Origin: an uncultured Candidatus Saccharibacteria bacterium | Lineage (GTDB): Bacteria > Patescibacteriota > WWE3 > UBA101185 > UBA10185 | Length of the DNA: 24,000 bases | Assembly (NCBI GenBank): GCA_964496005.1 | Contig: CAZBWW010000013.1 | Span: forward strand, 4,099-28,098 | Direction: 5' to 3' | Part shown: positions 2 through 20,975 of the stretch, piece after piece | How positions within the stretch are numbered: the stretch's first letter is position 1 | Layout of the letters: the number at the start of each line of letters is the position of its first letter | Made by a program: the position numbers and the translations under genes | The notes under the pieces: generated by a model | Databases searched by the model: none | Told to the model about the DNA's origin: nothing | The model's input: only the letters and a program-made list of their open reading frames with translations

Positions 2-1129
2 AATTCCGTCACCGGAAAATATTTAGCGGGGAAAAAAGTTGTGGGAGATGGGGTTGTATTAAACGGAAAAGAAGAGCTGTATCTTGATGTCGAATCACCG
101 GGAAAAATTGCGGAAAAGATTACCGGGAAAAGTTTGACATTAGTTGGTGCAAAAGGAAGAAATTTAAAAAACATTACGGTTGAGTTCCCCCTGGGAAAGT
201 TTATTTGTGTTACAGGTGTTTCGGGTTCCGGAAAATCGACATTGGTAATGGATACTTTATACTCTGCGTTACGGCAGGACTTTGGATTAAAGACCGACCA
301 GAGACCTGAACCATATACCGGCGTTACCGGAATTGACTATTTAGACAAAGTAATTGCAATAGATCAAACACCAATTGGGAGGACTCCTAAATCTAATCCG
401 GCCACATACACAAAAGCATTCGATGGAATACGCGAGCTATTTGCGAAAACACAGGAAGCTAGAATTCGCGGGTATCGCCAAGGACGGTTTAGTTTTAATG
501 TTAAAGGCGGAAGGTGTGAAGCATGTCAGGGGCAGGGGCAAATTAAGATTGAAATGCAGTTTATGCCCGATGTGTACGTAAATTGTGAAGTGTGCGAAGG
601 AAAGAGATATAACCGAGAAGCATTAGAAATAGAATATAAGGGCAAAAATATTTCTGAAGTACTAGATTTGACTATTGAAGAAGCGCTTGCTTTTTTTGAC
701 AATATTCCACAAGTTCGCCGAAAGATCCAGACACTGTACGATGTAGGCCTGGGATATATTAGATTGGGTCAACCGGCCACTACGTTGTCGGGCGGAGAAG
801 CTCAACGCGTAAAGTTGGCGTTGGAGTTATCTAAGGTTGCCAGGGGAAGCTCACTTTATATACTGGATGAGCCCACAACCGGATTACACTTCGAAGATCT
901 CGAAAGGTTAATTAACATTATCAAACGCTTGCAGGCAAAAGGGCACACAATTTTAGTAATTGAGCACAACATAGATATTATTAAGAACGCCGATTGGATA
1001 ATTGATTTAGGCCCCGAAGGCGGTGACGAAGGCGGGAAATTGGTTTTCTCGGGCCCCTTAGAAACTTTACTCCAAAATAAAGAATCGTACACAGCACAAG
1101 CATTGAGACAGCTAGTGCCAAGTATGTAG
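2..1129 (+). CDS. uvrA: Excinuclease ABC subunit UvrA, C-terminal half (5'-truncated by window edge)
   Basis: The frame is open to the window edge ([12 protein letters not shown] precedes the track's GTG at 41). Motifs seen: Walker [10 protein letters not shown]; zinc module [32 protein letters not shown]; ABC signature [12 protein letters not shown]; Walker [13 protein letters not shown]; IEHN H-loop. The C-terminus [11 protein letters not shown] resembles normal UvrA ends. Confidence 0.95.
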
Positions 1130-2948
1130 GTAAAGGACTTTCTATATAAGCATTTTTAATTTCGGGCTCAATCTCGTAATTCTTTCCAGTCGCGTCTTTT
1201 ACATACACAACTGTTTTTTCTTGGGGTACATATACAGCTATATGATTTCCTGGCAAAAGTGGCACATCCCGTTTATTAATTTGTGCGTATACGGTATTGT
1301 CGCTCTCATTTTTTAACGCGAATTTTTGGTGCTTTTTGATGTAGCTCAGCACATTAGTATTTGGTGTGTTGTAAAATGCTAATTTTGGTTCAAAATCTTC
1401 AAGATTTGAATTTTGGGCAAATGTAACGTCCACCTGTTTTTGCTTATCTGAAAATTTATATGCACCGGCAGGTAACGGGAATTGTGGATCAATACCTTTT
1501 ATTACAAATACTAAATGGTTAGTATCAAGTTTTGTGAAATAATCAATGCCCGAAGTGCTTTCCCAGGTTGGATCAACAGGTACCCAGCCAAATTCTTCGT
1601 CGTAAAATTCAGCCCATGAGTGTAGCAAATCACCACCTTTAAGGTTTATCGATAGCGGTTGTGAAGCTCCATTATCATTAGCAATAGCGTATCCGTTAAG
1701 TTCTCTCGCGGGAATGCCCATTGCACGCACAAGTGAAATAAATAAATCAGTGAATTCCATACACCCAATGTTTTCTTTTGAGTCAAGCGCGCTAACTGCT
1801 CCTTTTCGCTCTACAGTTTCGTTATCAAGAATTTCAAAATCATATTCTAAATTTGTAACTACAAAATTGTACGCGCTTTGTGCATTTTGAGCCGCACTTT
1901 TTGCAGGATCGTAAAGTTTCTGGGCTATTTCTTGAATTTTTGGATTAGTAACCTGCCAGTAGTTATTTCCCCTCGTATACTGTGAAATTAGCTTATCTGA
2001 GATTTGGACTTTGCTAAGTCCTAATTCCGGATTTATCTGTTTACCTAAAATTCTTGCCGTTCCCATTAATTTAATAAGCAGTTCTTCATCCCCGCGTAAT
2101 TCGTAGACTGCTATCGTGTTACCATCTACATCTTGCTTTAGCATTGTCGGTTGCGGGTCAAGAGCCGAATACACAACCTGCTGGACATCTGGAATATCCG
2201 GTGGGAGAGCTATTTCCCGGGTTTGTGTAAAATGGGTGTCGTTTTTTAGGTGATAGTCGAGCATAAAGTTTAAAACCTGAAAACTGCCAAAAGACGCAGT
2301 AATACCGGTTTTGGCTAATGTTTCCTTGTCAAATCCGTAAGTTACAGCTGTTGAGCTTTCTTCGCGTATTGGCGGTTCCGGTGACACAAAAATTTCCGGT
2401 CCGTACTCAAGTGGTACATGTATTTTTGCGTTGTAAGCTTCGGTTGTGTCCAATAAATTTACACGCGGGATGTTAACATTCCATACCTCACCAACTTTGG
2501 ATGCAATATCCTTAGTTTTGTAGTTTATTGTGAAGTTATTTTCCTTACCCTCACCTATAATTGTGTCTTCAAACTCAACAGCTATTGTAGTTTTATCACC
2601 TTCTTCGACAACTGTTGTTTCCAGCTTGTCGCCTTTTTCTGAAACTGCCGATACATCATAAATAACCATGTGTCTAACTGTTAACGCGTAGTTAGTAGCA
2701 ATAACATCTCTTTGTTTATTTACTATTTGAATGTCTTGGTCTACTTGAGCCTCACCGTTTTGTGCAAGTGTATATTGCACGGTGTAGTTTGTGGCAAACT
2801 GTTCATGAGACGGGGGTTGGTCCTGCTGTGCGTGTGCTTGGTTTAGGGCTAAAAATGCCAAAAAAATGACGATCCCGGACACGGACTGTTTGCTTATAGC
2901 TTTGGCGCTGTGTAGCTTGTTATGCAGTTTACTTTGTACAGTAGGCAC
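981..2948 (-). CDS. Secreted, C-terminally membrane-anchored transglutaminase-like (Cys-His-Asp core) protein
   Basis: GTG start (cac at 2946-2948). Signal peptide [17 protein letters not shown]. Transglutaminase-core context: GC(396)[25 protein letters not shown](443)SWAEFY, GWVPVD(459)PT. C-terminal TM helix [22 protein letters not shown] followed by a basic tail. The long N-terminal beta-rich region has no family I can name. Confidence 0.85.
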
Positions 2949-14634: not shown

Positions 14635-17169
14635 ATGAATTGGCTAAACCCAAAATCTTTGCCGAAGTCTACCGATGTTAAAAAATTGGCAGCCGGAGCT
14701 AAAGCAGAAAAAAATAGCACGATTGAATTAAGTGAAAATTCCAGGACAATTTTAGAAAAAAGATATTTACTGAAAAACCCGGACGGAACACCTGCGGAAA
14801 CTGTAGAGCAAATGTTTGAGAGAGTGGCAACGGTTGTTGCAGCGCCTGACGCACCTTACCGAGATGTTAAAACCACCGAAATTGAATTTTATAATTTATT
14901 AAGCACAAAAAAGTTTTTTCCTAACTCACCTACATTTAGTGGTGCGGGTACTCCTTTAGGGCAGTTAGCAGCCTGTTTTGTTTTACCCATTTCTGACGAT
15001 TTAGGCAAAGAACGCGATGGAATTTTTACAACTTTGCATGTTGCCGCTCTAATACAGCAAACAGGCGGCGGAAACGGATTTTCTTTTTCAAGTTTAAGGG
15101 AACGAGGTGCGAATGTTTCGTCCAGTAACGGGAAAGCAACCGGGCCTGTTGGCTTTATGAGTGTGTACGACCGCGCATTTGGGGAAATTGCACAGGGCGG
15201 AACGAGACGCGGTGCCAATATGGGAGTTTTGAGAGTAGATCACCCGGATATTAGAGAATTCATTAAGTGTAAAGCAGAAGAAGGTTCGATTTCTAATTTT
15301 AATATTTCAGTCGCAATTACTGATGAGTTTATGAAAGCAGTTAAAAATGACGAAACTTACAATTTGGTAAGTCCTAATACAGGTAAAATTATAGAGTCTC
15401 CGCGCGCACGGGAAATTTTTGAAATGATAGTTGAGTATGCATACACGAATGGAGAGCCCGGAGTATTATTCATAGATGCTGCCAATAGGACAAACCCTGT
15501 TCCGCACCTTTACAAACTGGAAGCTACAAATCCATGTGGTGAGCAGTGGCTTGGGCCTTACGAAAATTGCTGCTTAGGGTCTATAAATTTAGGTCAACAT
15601 TTAGATGAAAATGGCATCCTTGATTGGGATGCGTATCAGGAATCAATAGAGCTGTCCACACGCTTTTTGGATAACGTTGTAACCGCAAACGGTTTTGTCC
15701 CTGAAGTTCCGGAATTACGTGAGGCCGCAGACAATTGTAGAAGGATTGGACTTGGGTTTATGGGTTTAGCTGATGTTATGTACTCAATGGGTATTAGATA
15801 CGGTAGCGAAGAAGCCCAAGAATTTGCTGCCCAAGTAACCGAGTTTATGCGTTTCCATTCAATGAAAACATCAATAGAGCTGGCACGTGAACGTGGACCA
15901 TATTTAAAAATTGGAGGAAGCATTTATGATCCAAATAATATGGCGTGGGTTACACCTCAGCCGTTAAAACCGTACACAAGAAATTTTGGCAGACCGCAGA
16001 TTGATTGGGCTGAAATCTCATCGGGTATTAAGAAATATGGCATAAGAAACGCCGCAACAACTACAGTTGCCCCGACAGGTACAATCTCAACAGTCGCAGG
16101 CGTAGAAGGGTACGGGTGTGAACCTGTTTTCGCATTGGCATATATGAGAAACGTATATCAAGCGGCCGGAAATCAGGAAAAACTAACATTGACCTATGTA
16201 AGTCCGGCATTCGAGTATGCGATAGATACACTTGATCTGCCAAAGGAAGCAAAAGAAAAAGTAATAGAACAGGTCGTACAAACCGGTACGGTTCAAGGAA
16301 TTGAGGAGCTTCCGCAAAGACTAAGAGATGTGTTTGTTGTTTCGGGTGATGTTACAGCAGACGAGCATATTTTGATGCAGGCATCAATCCAGGCATTTAT
16401 AGATAACTCCATCTCAAAAACATGTAATTTTCCTGAAACGGCTACTAAAGACGATGTAGCGAAAGCCTATATGCGCGGGTGGGAGCTTGGGTGCAAGGGT
16501 TTGACGGTTTACGTTGCCGGAAGTAGACAAGAAGTAGTTTTAGAGACGAAAGCCACACAAGAAAAGAAAAGCTCAATTGACGCGCCTGTTAAACCACACG
16601 TTACTGATAGGGGATATAAATTAACCGGGTGCACTTATAAAGTGCGTACACCTCAAGGTACAGCATTTATTACAGTGAATAGAGATCAAAATGAACAACC
16701 GTTTGAAGTTTTTGTAAGTGTGGGTAAGGCGGGTACGGATTTGGGGGCGCTGTCCGAGGCTCTTGGTAGAGCGCTATCCGGATGGTTGCGTGCATCTTAC
16801 GAACCAATCTCTACAGTAAAAGAAATAATATCGCAATTAAGCGGAATTGGTGGAGCAAGATCTATAGGGTACGGCAAAAGTAAGGTTAGCTCAATGCCAG
16901 ACGCTGTGGCCAAAGTTTTAGCGGAAGAATTTGGAATTGAAGTTATGAATAATGGAAATGGGAGCAATGGGCATGTTGGACACGATGACAGTGAGAAGGT
17001 TCTCGGCGCAAATAACAGTCAAGCAGAGCAACCTGTGGGTCAATCTGATATATCTTACAAAAACGAGCTGTTTACGCACATAGACATGTGTCCAGACTGT
17101 GGAAACGCTTCTTTAATAAAAGAAGAGGGGTGTGCAAAATGCTACGAATGCGGTTATAGCGTGTGCTAA
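14635..17169 (+). CDS. nrdJ: Class II (adenosylcobalamin-dependent) ribonucleoside-triphosphate/diphosphate reductase NrdJ
   Basis: Motifs [14 protein letters not shown] and QLAACFVLP; active site [21 protein letters not shown]; [15 protein letters not shown]-like segment [32 protein letters not shown]. Cys-rich C-terminal tail [18 protein letters not shown]. No ATP-cone and no intein-sized insertion. Confidence 0.95.
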
Positions 17170-17238
17170 GACAGAGGTGAGCAGTTTTTCTTGTTAACTA
17201 CTAGCTGCGTGACTTTATTTCCAAAACTAACCTATAGG

Positions 17239-17247
17239 TGATATTAT
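17239..17247 (+). promoter_or_regulatory. Extended -10-like element TGaTATTAT, 9 nt upstream of the adenosyltransferase ATG
   Basis: TG at 17239-17240, a at 17241, TATTAT at 17242-17247. A 9-nt spacer precedes the ATG at 17257. Confidence 0.3.
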
Positions 17248-17256
17248 GCATAGCGT

Positions 17257-17805
17257 ATGGCAATATATACAAAAAGAGGCGATAAAGGTAATACCGAGCT
17301 TGTAGGCGCGCGTGAATGCTCTAAAGCGGATCCGGTTTTTGATGTACTTGGAAATATGGATGAACTAAACGCAAGTTTAGGATTTCTTTCCAAATCACGT
17401 CTTACGGATGTTATTAAAATAATTGACGGTATTCAAGACGACTTGTTCTGGATTGGGGCGCGCCTTGCGAACAAAACCACACAAGAAAAAGACTTTGATC
17501 CTATTCTTCTTCGAGTTTCCGAGATTGAGAAAACAATCGATACTTACGAGGCTAAGCTACCGAAGTTAACAAATTTTATTTTGCCCGGTGGTACGGAGCC
17601 TGCCGTCAGGTTGCACTTTTGTCGAGTTGTTTGTAGAAGGTGGGAACGATCTGCGGTAAAATATTTTACACGTAATCCTGGTGCAAGTGGTAGGGAACCG
17701 GTACTAATTTACGCAAACAGATTGTCAGATTTATTATTTGTACTCGCGCGCTATGCGAACAAAAAAAATGGTGTAAAGGATAAAATCTGGAAAGGGAATT
17801 TATGA
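17257..17805 (+). CDS. PduO-type ATP:cob(I)alamin adenosyltransferase
   Basis: Motif set IYTKRGDKGNTEL, MDELNASLGF, IQDDLFWIGARLA, FILPGG, LHFCRVVCRRWER, NRLSDLLFVLARY. This is typical of the PduO/MMAB-type adenosyltransferase domain. Confidence 0.9.
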   Translation: MAIYTKRGDKGNTELVGARECSKADPVFDVLGNMDELNASLGFLSKSRLTDVIKIIDGIQDDLFWIGARLANKTTQEKDFDPILLRVSEIEKTIDTYEAKLPKLTNFILPGGTEPAVRLHFCRVVCRRWERSAVKYFTRNPGASGREPVLIYANRLSDLLFVLARYANKKNGVKDKIWKGNL

Positions 17806-17918
17806 GTTTAAGATACAAAATCTTGTTTTTAGTCTTAGTATTAGTAGCAATTATTATTACTGTTGGGCTTGTGTACCGCGCCTATACCACTGATTTATTA
17901 TTAGCAGGTTTGGTCTAA
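17802..17918 (+). CDS. Unannotated 38-codon single-TM micro-ORF (MSLRYKILFLVLVLVAIIITVGLVYRAYTTDLLLAGLV)
   Basis: Not in the ORF track because of its length. Its ATG at 17802 overlaps the adenosyltransferase TGA (17803-17805) as ATGA. SD-like AAAGGGA lies at 17791-17797. It has one clear hydrophobic helix flanked by R/K and R. I checked the translation codon by codon. Confidence 0.4.
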   Translation: MSLRYKILFLVLVLVAIIITVGLVYRAYTTDLLLAGLV

Positions 17919-17922
17919 ATAG

Positions 17923-17951
17923 TTCATTTTTTATACCGTCTGATATATAAT
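17923..17951 (+). promoter_or_regulatory. Candidate sigma70-type promoter of the ileS leader (TTCATT, 17-nt spacer, TATAAT)
   Basis: A perfect TATAAT lies at 17946-17951. TTCATT at 17923-17928 gives a 17-nt spacer. An alternative reading is TGaTATATA at 17941-17949. Confidence 0.4.
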
Positions 17952-17961
17952 CTAAAAATAT

Positions 17962-18000
17962 ATGGCAAGCAAGAAATTAACAGTAATAATTATTGGTTAG
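17962..18000 (+). CDS. Candidate 12-codon leader peptide MASKKLTVIIIG with three consecutive Ile codons
   Basis: ATG at 17962 is 10 nt downstream of the TATAAT. Codons are GTA ATA ATT ATT (17983-17994), then GGT and TAG (17998-18000). A hairpin and an intrinsic terminator lie immediately downstream, with ileS 105 nt after the stop. Confidence 0.35.
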   Translation: MASKKLTVIIIG

Positions 18001-18003
18001 ATA

Positions 18004-18025
18004 GCGGGGTTGGTGAACTCTCCGC
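18004..18025 (+). promoter_or_regulatory. GC-rich leader hairpin (GCGGGG / CUCCGC, 10-nt loop UUGGUGAACU)
   Basis: Pairs are 18004-18025, 18005-18024, 18006-18023, 18007-18022, 18008-18021 (G-U) and 18009-18020. It can be extended by GGUUAG (17995-18000) pairing with CUAA-(G)-CC (18027-18033), which overlaps the 5' arm of the terminator. Confidence 0.45.
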
Positions 18026-18028
18026 GCT

Positions 18029-18052
18029 AAGCCCTTTTGTAAGGGCTTTTTT
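18029..18052 (+). terminator. Rho-independent terminator or attenuator
   Basis: AAGCCCTT (18029-18036) pairs perfectly with AAGGGCTT (18041-18048). The loop is TTGT. The T run continues to 18052, giving six consecutive T from 18047. It lies 52 nt upstream of the ileS ATG. Confidence 0.8.
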
Positions 18053-18104
18053 AATACAGAATTGCTTCTTGTAAAAGTTACAAAGGATTAATAATAAAGG
18101 CAAA

Positions 18105-20975
18105 ATGACGAAAAAATTTAAAGAACTACAAACAGTGCCGGACTTTCCTGCCATGGAAAGAGACATAATAAAGTATTGGGAAAGCCTAGACATTGTACAG
18201 CTGTTGAAAAAGGCCAGAGCAGGTAGTGAGGAAAAAGTTTATTATGATGGGCCAATTACTGCAAATAACATGCCACACTATGGTCACACTGTTCAGTGGA
18301 CGATTAAAGATCTTGTTCCCCGCTATTGGAGTATGAAGAATTATTTTGTTTCCCGCAATATGGGGTGGGACTGCCAAGGTATACCGGTTGAATACGAAGT
18401 CGAAAAAGAGCTAAAGTTTGAAAAAAAGGAAGATATTGAAGCATTCGGGATAGCTAAATTTAACGAGTTGTGCAGAAAATCAGTCGAAAAGTACAAAGAT
18501 TCTATTTTTCATTATGAAACCAGACTCGGTAGGTGGTTTGATGTAACCGATATGTATTCCACAATGGATAAAGATTATATCGAAAGTATGTGGTGGTCGC
18601 TCAAAGAATTGTATAAAAAAGACTTGTTGTATGAAGGACACAAAGTAGTCGCATACTCAACCCGTGCTGGTACAACGCTATCTACTCATGAGGTAAATGC
18701 CGGCGGCTATGCGGATATTGAAGATCCTTATGTAACCGTCAAGTTTAAGATTTTAGCACCGGATTTTGCCGGCACCTTCTTTTTGGCGTGGACTACTACT
18801 CCATGGACAATGCCGGGAAACTTGCTGCTAGCTGTTGGAAAAGATATTACTTATGCTTTGGTTGAGGCAAATTCCGAAAAGTATATTTTGGCAAAAGAAG
18901 TAGTAGACACCGTTTTTAAAGAACAAAAGTACAAGATCCTAAAAGAGTATTCGGCTGAAGAATTAGTAGGGTTGGACTATAGCCCGCCGTTTACCTATTT
19001 TGCGGACAAAAAGAATGAGGGGTGTTTTAAAGTTGTAGCCGGAGAACATGTAACTACAGAAGAAGGTACGGGTATTGTGCATTTAGCCCCTTACGGTGCG
19101 GAGGATTTTGAAATTTTTATGAATTTAGGCATTAGCCTGTTTGACTATTTAGATGACACTGCACATTTTACAGAGTTAGTGCCGGAGTATGAAGGAGAAT
19201 TTTATTTAACAGCAAACGAAAAAATTATTTCAGTATTAGCTGAAAAGGAAGTGTTGTTTAACACGGGTAAAATAGTACATCGCATGCCGATGTGTTGGCG
19301 AACTGACACACCTTTAATTTATAAACCGATAAAAAGCTGGTATGTGGCAGTAACCAAAATAAAAGCTAAAATGGTGGCGGAAAACGCCCGGATTAAGTGG
19401 ATGCCGGAACATGTTGGTAAAGGACGTGCAGGTGAATGGATAGCAAACGCTAAAGATTGGGCACTTAGCCGAAGCAGGTATTGGGGTACGCCGTTGCCGG
19501 TATGGGTTAACGACAAAACGAACGAGAAAGTGTTTATTGGCTCATTTCAGGAATTAAAAGAATTGGCAGGTGTTGAGCTTGAAGATCCTCACCGGCCATT
19601 TGTAGATGAAATTACCTGGGAAGATAAAAAGAACGGCGGCACATTCAAAAGAGTAAAAGATGTTATTGATGTGTGGTACGACTCAGGGTCAATGCCATTT
19701 GCACAACTTCATTATCCGTTCGAAGGTCAGGAACTATTTGACCAAAAAGTACCGGCGGATTTTGTGTGTGAAATGCATGAACAAGCCAGGTTGTGGTTTT
19801 ATACCATGCTGGTGATTAACGTCGCGCTTTTTGATAAAGTGCCGTATGAGAATGTGGTAGCGCACGGGGTAATGCTGGATAAAGACGGGAAAAAACTAAG
19901 TAAAAGTAAGCGGAATTTTCCGCCAATGGATGATGTACTAGACCAGTTCGGCGGTGATATCCTTAGATACTTTATCTTAAATTCACCTATAGTACAGGCC
20001 GAAGGTGCTAGGTTTCACAACGAAGTTTTAGATGAAGCCAGAAAAGAGTTTTTTATTCCTTTGTGGAATTGTGTGAAATATTTTAGTACTTTTGCAAATC
20101 TCCATAATTTTGTGCCAACAGGCAAAAAACCCGCAGTCGAAAACGTATTGGACAAATGGATACTAGCAAGATTGCAGCAAACTGTTAATGTAATGACCGA
20201 AAATTTGGACGTATATAATATTTTACCTGCCACTAGAGAGGTCAGACCGTTTATAGATGATTTATCTGCGTGGTATATAAGACGTTCTCGGGATCGAATA
20301 AGCAGTGGGGAACCAGAGGCTTTGCAGACCTTACATTATGTGTTAGCTGATTTTACGAGATTATTAGCTCCGTTACTGCCGTTTGTGTCCGAAACATTAT
20401 ATGAGAACCTTGGGTTAAGAGAATTGACTGGTTTGGTATCTGTACACTTAGATTTTTACCCCGAACCAAACGAACTTACGCCCGAACAAGTGGAAATTCT
20501 AGCCAATATGGCGCAAGATCGGGAGACCATCTCACTCGCACTGTCGATACGGGTAAGTACCGGAATAGGTGTTAGGCAGCCGCTAGACGTGTGCGCGACT
20601 GCAAATAAAGTTTACTCCAAGAGACTTATTATGGATGAGGTAAACGTTAAAAGTGTGGTAGCGGAAATTTCGCTGTCTGACTTTATAAAAGAAAATGCTG
20701 CGCAAAAACCCATCACTGATGCTAGTCAAACAGTGGCGCTGACAACCGAGTTATCGGAAGATCTTTTGGTAGAGGGTGCAGCTAGAAATTTAATTAGAAA
20801 AATTCAGGGGCTGCGCAAAAAACAGGGGTTAAATGTTGAGGATTCAATAGAAGTTGTATATGTTTCAGATGACCTTACCGAAAAGGCAATTAAGCTGTTT
20901 GAAACAGATATTAAAACAACAACTAATGCCACTAACTTAACTGCAGGTACAGAATTTAAAATAGAGCCTAAGTAG
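18105..20975 (+). CDS. ileS: Isoleucyl-tRNA synthetase, type 2 (eukaryote/archaeal-like)
   Basis: HIGH motif PHYGH, GWDCQGIPVE, editing-domain TTPWTMPGN. The KMSKS motif appears as GKKLSKSKRNFPP, the type-2 pattern. There is no C-terminal Cys4 zinc module. Length is 956 aa. Confidence 0.97.
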   Translation: MTKKFKELQTVPDFPAMERDIIKYWESLDIVQLLKKARAGSEEKVYYDGPITANNMPHYGHTVQWTIKDLVPRYWSMKNYFVSRNMGWDCQGIPVEYEVEKELKFEKKEDIEAFGIAKFNELCRKSVEKYKDSIFHYETRLGRWFDVTDMYSTMDKDYIESMWWSLKELYKKDLLYEGHKVVAYSTRAGTTLSTHEVNAGGYADIEDPYVTVKFKILAPDFAGTFFLAWTTTPWTMPGNLLLAVGKDITYALVEANSEKYILAKEVVDTVFKEQKYKILKEYSAEELVGLDYSPPFTYFADKKNEGCFKVVAGEHVTTEEGTGIVHLAPYGAEDFEIFMNLGISLFDYLDDTAHFTELVPEYEGEFYLTANEKIISVLAEKEVLFNTGKIVHRMPMCWRTDTPLIYKPIKSWYVAVTKIKAKMVAENARIKWMPEHVGKGRAGEWIANAKDWALSRSRYWGTPLPVWVNDKTNEKVFIGSFQELKELAGVELEDPHRPFVDEITWEDKKNGGTFKRVKDVIDVWYDSGSMPFAQLHYPFEGQELFDQKVPADFVCEMHEQARLWFYTMLVINVALFDKVPYENVVAHGVMLDKDGKKLSKSKRNFPPMDDVLDQFGGDILRYFILNSPIVQAEGARFHNEVLDEARKEFFIPLWNCVKYFSTFANLHNFVPTGKKPAVENVLDKWILARLQQTVNVMTENLDVYNILPATREVRPFIDDLSAWYIRRSRDRISSGEPEALQTLHYVLADFTRLLAPLLPFVSETLYENLGLRELTGLVSVHLDFYPEPNELTPEQVEILANMAQDRETISLALSIRVSTGIGVRQPLDVCATANKVYSKRLIMDEVNVKSVVAEISLSDFIKENAAQKPITDASQTVALTTELSEDLLVEGAARNLIRKIQGLRKKQGLNVEDSIEVVYVSDDLTEKAIKLFETDIKTTTNATNLTAGTEFKIEPK

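Follow-up and report, generated by a model that had tools for sequence, protein, structure and literature searches.

Background

Among leader-peptide attenuators of aminoacyl-tRNA synthetase operons, the textbook case is the one preceding pheST in Escherichia coli (pheM leader peptide), and the leaders of the ilvGMEDA and ilvBN operons of enterobacteria encode peptides with Ile/Val/Leu codons. The Patescibacteria (candidate phyla radiation, CPR), from which the DNA described here originates, are uncultivated organisms with reduced genomes, and their gene regulation is almost unknown. With pheST cited as the precedent of synthetase attenuation, classical attenuators are predicted to control trpS and leuS of Streptomyces, while ileS has a T-box in Firmicutes and a translational variant of it in Actinobacteria (PMC1262725); His-codon leader peptides have been predicted upstream of hisS paralogues in Bacilli (PMC2965389). 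Here we analyze the region 5' of ileS, the gene of isoleucyl-tRNA synthetase (IleRS), in a stretch of 24,000 nucleotides from an uncultured Candidatus Saccharibacteria bacterium (assembly GCA_964496005.1, contig CAZBWW010000013.1, positions 4,099 to 28,098), hereafter called the window, in which positions are counted from the first letter. We propose that this region probably contains a ribosome-mediated (leader-peptide) transcription attenuator of ileS, which senses the supply of charged tRNA(Ile).

Elements preceding ileS in the window

The 186-nt spacer preceding ileS contains four elements on the forward strand, namely a promoter-like site, a short open reading frame (ORF), a GC-rich hairpin and a textbook intrinsic terminator, all of which had been pointed out in a sequence-only reading of the window and are confirmed in the sequence. 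The promoter-like site (17923-17951; 9/12 matches to the consensus) combines a weak -35 hexamer TTCATT (17923-17928) with a perfect -10 hexamer TATAAT (17946-17951) over 17 nt, and ends 10 nt 5' of the ATG of the leader ORF (17962); it is not listed by a stricter promoter scan of the window, because its -35 hexamer matches at only 3/6 positions. The leader ORF (17962-18000; 12 codons and TAG) encodes MASKKLTVIIIG and closes with GTA ATA ATT ATT GGT before the stop. The candidate regulatory codons ATA ATT ATT (Ile-Ile-Ile; 17986-17994) end 7 nt 5' of the base (U18002) of the following hairpin, which we call hairpin A. It begins 1-3 nt past the leader stop codon, where a ribosome would have to open its 5' arm, with a core GCGGGG...CCGCGC at 18004-18027 that can be extended to 18002-18029 (folding, -10.7 kcal/mol); the sequence-only reading had recognized this hairpin and placed its end (18025) 2-4 nt short. 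The terminator (18029-18052) is formed by AAGCCCTT-TTGT-AAGGGCTT (18029-18048) followed by TTTT to 18052, i.e. by an 8-bp stem (4 G-C), a UUGU loop and a U-tract, and it is the top-ranked terminator-like site in a terminator scan of the whole 24 kb. The ATG of ileS, the proposed regulated gene (18105-20975; 956 aa; Pfam tRNA-synt_1, Anticodon_1 and DUF5915), lies 52 nt further, and the homologues found with its product as a query are annotated as isoleucine--tRNA ligase.

The spacer has a G+C content of 31%, and Ile codons are therefore cheap there; the run Ile-Ile-Ile occurs once among the 6448 codons of the genes in the window. Since the window sequence alone is not beyond chance, the case for regulation rests on comparative evidence.

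Conservation of the leader in related lineages

The ileS loci for comparison were drawn from genome and metagenome collections and from the contigs of 12 of the closest IleRS proteins (55-65% identical). The layout seen in the window recurs directly 5' of ileS in five further lineages of Patescibacteria (IleRS 55-65% identical), with the leader peptides MLTYVNHSVIIIC (L087), MAIITSTKVIIIK (L021, the same in L047), MFNLNLQRTIVIII (L079), MNTKVSKTIIII (L001, a metagenome-assembled genome of Nomurabacteria) and MYYGIMIINFLNIIIM (L086), each ending at a stop codon. In 6/6 lineages the leader ORF starts with ATG and has 12-16 codons, which are unalignable except for a run of 3-4 Ile codons located 0-1 codon before the stop, so that the common ending reads (V/T/N)-I-I-I-(X)-stop. 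The run is ATA ATT ATT in most lineages and the synonymous ATA ATC ATT in L086. The spacing is kept as well: the hairpin follows 1-4 nt past the stop codon and the terminator 0-3 nt beyond the hairpin, and then comes ileS, with the exception of L086, in which the post-stop hairpin overlaps the terminator.

An in-frame ATG at least 5 codons 5' of the conserved nonamer, with no stop codon in between, is found in 2-16% of dinucleotide shuffles of the individual sequences, which gives a joint shuffle probability of 2e-7 for all six lineages (a product that assumes independence and is thus approximate; the upstream parts of the ORFs are unalignable). Among ~70 ileS loci scanned, an ATG-initiated ORF with a terminal Ile-Ile-Ile was present in these six only and absent from the ~60 others, including those of AT-rich Saccharibacteria, while a DNA pattern for the motif, applied to viral contigs as a negative control, gave 59 matches, none of them near an IleRS gene. 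Judged from these comparisons, the recurrence of ORF, hairpin and terminator in six lineages is far beyond chance. The suggestion of an Ile-sensing leader-peptide attenuator, made originally for the window, is hereby supported, as related genomes do carry an Ile-rich short ORF before ileS.

Both stems also display the compensatory changes that had been suggested as a check. The pairs of hairpin A were tabulated from per-sequence folds, because the MAFFT alignment misaligned this hairpin; in five lineages its 5' arm RCGGG is kept, with double changes G-C/A-U at pair 1 and G-C/A-U/C-G at pair 6. RNAalifold run over the six lineages recovered the terminator stem, with compensatory changes at 3/7 consensus pairs, and nothing else. 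The loops of hairpin A were also inspected for resemblance to tRNAs or anticodons; such motifs are not conserved and were rejected.

Sites resembling sigma-70 promoters (9/12 matches) lie 8 nt (L087) and 12 nt (L001) 5' of the leader ATG. Because promoter-like sites are thus located 8-12 nt before the ATG in the window, L087 and L001, we infer that the leader ORF would begin at the 5' terminus of the transcript or close to it, and that the transcript would be leaderless or nearly so.

The codon run is accompanied by a sequence symmetry that invites a different explanation, according to which the AT-rich element is a nucleic-acid signal rather than a series of codons: the palindrome AATAATTATT would be a DNA operator or a protein site on the RNA, hairpin A and the terminator would be controlled by a protein (e.g. 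IleRS or another RNA-binding protein bound to hairpin A) or would act constitutively, and the ORF would be incidental. Indeed, the Ile run with its flanks (17983-17996 in the window) forms a perfect palindrome of 10 bp in the window and likewise in L087 and L001, and a 15-nt palindrome ACATAAT-C-ATTATGT that reaches two nt past the Ile codons is present in L086; moreover, ATAATTATT is conserved at the nucleotide level beyond what synonymous drift predicts, the 5' arm RCGGG of hairpin A is the same in 5/5 lineages, and for 3/6 lineages no antiterminator is predicted (see below). The palindrome is, however, inherent to ATA-ATT-ATT. The reading frame, the stop-free path from an upstream ATG and a stop 0-1 codon past the run are kept in 6/6 lineages while the length and sequence of the ORF vary (the joint shuffle value given above). 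Conservation does not extend to the loops of hairpin A, which share no tRNA-like or protein-site motif, and a run of codons for precisely the amino acid of the downstream enzyme would be a strong coincidence. We therefore regard a palindromic nucleic-acid signal as an unlikely explanation of the element.

Another way to sense tRNA(Ile) would be a T-box-like riboswitch, in which uncharged tRNA(Ile) binds the leader directly and UGGU (18011-18014) pairs with the ACCA end of the tRNA. The gene would fit, since T-boxes typically control ileS in Firmicutes and Actinobacteria (PMC1262725), and in the window the UGGU indeed falls within the loop region of hairpin A. However, the leader is only ~95 nt long and has no Stem I or specifier domain, and the UGGN sequence differs between lineages (UGGA in L021, UGGC in L001) or is missing (L087 and L079). 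Neither the T-box (RF00230) nor any other Rfam family matched the leader in the window and the five related loci at the gathering score, and at E<=10 the region 17700-18300 yielded no T-box, only sub-threshold matches of terminator-like small RNAs. The sequence-only reading had argued against a T-box, and we agree with it in considering such a mechanism hardly credible for this leader.

Position of the terminator between the leader ORF and ileS

The sequence-only reading had also raised the more mundane interpretation that the terminator marks an ordinary operon boundary, ending the upstream operon of nrdJ, a PduO-type gene and a small ORF, with ileS transcribed from its own promoter within 18053-18104 (e.g. 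TTGTAA-17-TAATAA) and the short ORF occurring by chance in AT-rich DNA. The terminator of the window indeed lies behind an operon of the same strand and leaves 52 nt free for a promoter; in L079 ~88 nt with TATAAA-like sites separate the terminator from ileS; and in L083, a relative lacking the leader, a terminator coincides with the end of the small ORF, 25 nt short of ileS. The same layout is kept, however, where the genes upstream of the leader are on the opposite strand (L087), where the leader is preceded by a tRNA-like gene in opposite orientation (L086), and behind a different operon, nrdD-nrdG (L021). Furthermore, the gap between the U-tract and the ATG of ileS amounts to 11 nt in L001, 14 nt in L086, 20 nt in L087 and 21 nt in L021, and is filled by a sequence resembling a Shine-Dalgarno (SD) site (AGGGGG, AGGAGA, AAGGAA). 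As these gaps of 11-21 nt hold only the SD of ileS, an mRNA that uses this SD in the four lineages must have come through the terminator. Chance does not explain six in-frame ORFs with an Ile run either, and we consider an operon boundary very unlikely. As read from these gene arrangements, the terminator sits between the leader ORF and ileS and must be read through for expression, with a second ileS promoter possible in the window and L079, because 52 nt and ~88 nt, respectively, leave room for it.

Proposed mechanism and predicted antiterminator

According to the mechanism that we propose, transcription would begin a few nt 5' of the ATG (17962), and the 12-codon leader would be translated by a ribosome. 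With ample Ile-tRNA, the ribosome would reach the TAG and cover the 5' arm of hairpin A; that of the terminator would remain free, the terminator (18029-18052) would fold, and most transcripts would stop before ileS. With scarce Ile-tRNA, the ribosome would pause on ATA-ATT-ATT, 7-15 nt short of hairpin A, and the exposed G-rich segment 18006-18015 would pair with 18025-18034 and pre-empt the terminator, allowing RNA polymerase to enter ileS. The outcome would be more IleRS when charged isoleucine tRNA is short.

The switching step was modeled by folding leaders truncated just before the 3' arm of the terminator, with the ribosome represented by a mask that covers the A-site codon and 7 or 10 nt, and with explicit hard constraints for forced pairings. 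The predicted antiterminator of the window (18006-18034) pairs 18006-18015 (GGGGUUGGUG) with 18025-18034 (CGCUAAGCCC), referred to as the a:c pairing, and sequesters 6/8 nt of the 5' arm of the terminator. It is the minimum free energy (MFE) structure (-12.2 kcal/mol) whichever of the three Ile codons the ribosome occupies, and with the ribosome at the stop codon it reaches only -5.5/-2.4 kcal/mol (-0.7/+0.4 with the CCC core forced to pair). The corresponding helix GGGGUC:GACCCC of L021 has -13.5 kcal/mol with the ribosome on Ile and -3.5 or less with the ribosome at the stop, and in L086 the antiterminator is the post-stop hairpin that overlaps the terminator (-9.0 kcal/mol), and it disappears once the ribosome stands at the stop. 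In the window and L021, 97-99% of composition-matched shuffles give a weaker duplex than a:c (window: 97%). A ribosome that stands on the last Ile codon and reaches 10 nt further weakens hairpin A (-5.8 and -7.7) and leaves the antiterminator untouched. The models thus predict an antiterminator that depends on the position of the ribosome in 3/6 lineages (window, L021 and L086), and there, as in trp, the leader would have three states: without a ribosome, hairpin A and the terminator; with a ribosome stalled on Ile, the antiterminator; with a ribosome at the stop, the terminator.

Compared with the pairings originally drawn by hand, GGGGUU:AGCCCU was roughly right, the best register being the one given above. 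The other proposed helix, GGUUAG:CUAA(G)CC, which extends the base of hairpin A over the stop codon, gives way to the a:c pairing in the folding. Several further candidates for the competing helix were examined and rejected. Helices similar to GGUUAG:CUAA(G)CC comprise 3-5 A-U-driven base pairs in L001, L079 and L087, are missing from L021 and are too weak. The 3' arm of hairpin A can pair with the 3' arm of the terminator or with the SD of ileS over 3-4 bp only, which by eye is not conserved. Pairings between the start-codon region and the flank of the terminator (GUUUA:UAAAC in L079, GUUAA:UUAAC in L087) appear in the ribosome-free MFE structures, yet they are A/U-rich and not general.

A number of results weigh against a leader-peptide attenuator. 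The fold of the leader is not significant, with z = -1.4 over 17955-18062 and z = -0.9 over the entire spacer, and shuffled sequences contain promoter-like sites as often as the region before ileS. No SD sequence precedes the leader ORFs, and their translation therefore hinges on the assumed leaderless start. Whatever the state of the ribosome, the leaders of L087, L079 and L001 lack a predicted antiterminator that involves the terminator; in these three, hairpin A (-9 to -13 kcal/mol) outcompetes the a:c pairing (-3 to -4) and is separated from the terminator by 3 nt. Once the 3' arm of the terminator is present, hairpin A plus the terminator is the MFE structure in every lineage, and the computed barrier from antiterminator to terminator is low, only 4-7 kcal/mol (~7 in the window). 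Finally, the leader is present in 6/16 sampled close lineages, and the ten relatives without it, in which ileS is simply co-transcribed, indicate that the element is dispensable.

The elements, their order and spacing and their conservation are seen directly in the six lineages, while the start of transcription, the translation of the ORF and the switching step are proposed. Ile codons read by a ribosome as the putative sensor, and read-through of the terminator as the output, are well supported; the switching step is more tentative. A non-classical attenuator could operate without any alternative helix: a folded hairpin abutting the terminator would hinder completion of the terminator stem inside RNA polymerase, and a ribosome at the stop of the leaderless leader ORF would melt that hairpin. 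The abutment of the post-stop hairpin (0-3 nt from the terminator and 1-4 nt from the stop) is conserved though half of the lineages share no nucleotides between hairpin and terminator. We nonetheless view this variant as improbable, and favor classical attenuation by ribosome stalling.

Distribution of the leader and arrangements of ileS

The ten lineages lacking the leader have ileS in diverse surroundings. In six of them (L048/49, L078, L082, L084, L085 and L088) it is fused to the nrdJ-PduO-small-ORF operon, in two (L080 and L081) it comes after a tRNA-Lys gene, in L148 a 54-nt divergent gap precedes it, and in L083 there is a terminator overlapping the stop codon of the small ORF. The RCGGG arm of the hairpin and the AACCCUU arm of the terminator are shared among lineages with the leader, which suggests, at the level of sequence comparison, one origin of the leader followed by repeated loss.

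In L083 (~1340-1500) the TAG of the small membrane ORF is inside a terminator-like hairpin (AGGCTCTTTAGTTTAAAGCCT followed by T7), 25 nt before the ATG of ileS, with no leader ORF; this arrangement may represent a different, translation-coupled gating of read-through into ileS. The tRNA-Lys(UUU) gene is located directly 5' of ileS in L080 (48-122) and L081 (1368-1442), and L080 has in addition a GC-rich inverted repeat and a T-run between the tRNA-Lys gene and ileS.

The gene ileS follows nrdD-nrdG (class III anaerobic ribonucleotide reductase, RNR, and its activase; 41-2839 in L021) in L021/L047, where the ileS leader is present, and nrdJ-PduO (class II RNR and adenosyltransferase) in the window (14635-17805), L079, L083-85 and L088. 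To judge from gene content, the class of RNR is swapped at a conserved position before ileS.

The opposite-strand feature upstream of the leader in L086 (52-117, reverse strand) is recognized as a tRNA by Rfam (46 bits) and not called by ARAGORN; it has an anticodon loop TTTTAAA and a short T-arm. Its anticodon UUA would read the stop codon UAA, while TAA still serves as the stop of a neighboring gene. The feature may be either a suppressor-like tRNA gene or a degenerate one.

Other genes of the window

Upstream of ileS on the same strand, the window encodes a class II ribonucleotide reductase (nrdJ; 14635-17169), a PduO-type cobalamin adenosyltransferase (17257-17805) and a 38-aa single-pass membrane ORF (17802-17918), which matches no Pfam family and whose start overlaps the stop codon of the adenosyltransferase gene. 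Homologues of the 38-aa ORF, 36-58 aa long and with an invariant L..RA...D pattern, are found between the PduO gene and ileS in at least 8 relatives, and on this comparison the ORF appears to encode a micro-protein of the nrdJ-PduO operon, conserved yet unannotated. The window also contains the dcw cluster, ftsZ and rplU-rpmA, and this gene content, together with the nearest relatives of its IleRS, assigns it to the Patescibacteria (CPR). Two long ORFs on opposite strands, 41-1129 (forward; ABC/SMC-like ATPase) and 981-2948 (reverse; transglutaminase-like), overlap by ~150 nt; one of their starts, probably a GTG, may have been set too far upstream.

Comparison with known attenuators and tRNA-sensing leaders

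A literature search (full text, incomplete coverage) returned no paper on an ileS leader peptide or on any attenuator in Patescibacteria. Judged by this search, the leader described here is a candidate for the first attenuator found both for ileS and for Patescibacteria, while the regulatory class itself is well known. If the prediction is true, Patescibacteria regulate genes via the coupling of transcription and translation and tune IleRS to tRNA charging, although they must import amino acids, and ileS joins the short list of synthetase genes that are under leader peptides instead of T-boxes. As a compact (~95 nt) and probably leaderless candidate attenuator, the element is amenable to study in vitro; its patchy distribution among the 16 close lineages offers a natural series of gain and loss, and the lineages without an obvious antiterminator could reveal a variant of the switching mechanism.

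The ileS leader resembles that of pheST in having a short ORF with a run of cognate codons, followed by an intrinsic terminator before the synthetase gene, and in the predicted response, i.e. more enzyme when charged tRNA is scarce. It differs from pheST in the amino acid, the gene and the phylum, with no sequence relationship between the two leaders, as well as in the location of the codon run at the extreme C-terminus of the peptide (0-1 codon before the stop), in the lack of an SD sequence before a probably near-leaderless ORF, and in a post-stop hairpin that abuts the terminator without overlap. Because post-stop hairpin and terminator do not overlap, the classical 1:2 / 2:3 / 3:4 scheme of pairing segments is not writable for half of the lineages. 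With ilvGMEDA and ilvBN the leader shares Ile codons as the sensor of ribosome-mediated attenuation, whereas those leaders serve biosynthetic operons, use mixed branched-chain codons over ~32 codons and form well-defined alternative hairpins. The predictions for trpS and leuS of Streptomyces and for hisS of Bacilli are similar in kind, as they too come from comparative genomics outside the Proteobacteria, with evidence of the same type and strength, and the present case extends them to another synthetase and another phylum. Finally, the ileS T-box acts on the same gene and responds to the same signal (tRNA(Ile) charging), in Firmicutes also with read-through of a terminator as the output; unlike the T-box, however, which binds tRNA directly through a structured leader of more than 200 nt with a specifier codon and the T-box sequence, the leader of Patescibacteria is ~95 nt long, matches no Rfam family and contains a translatable ORF.

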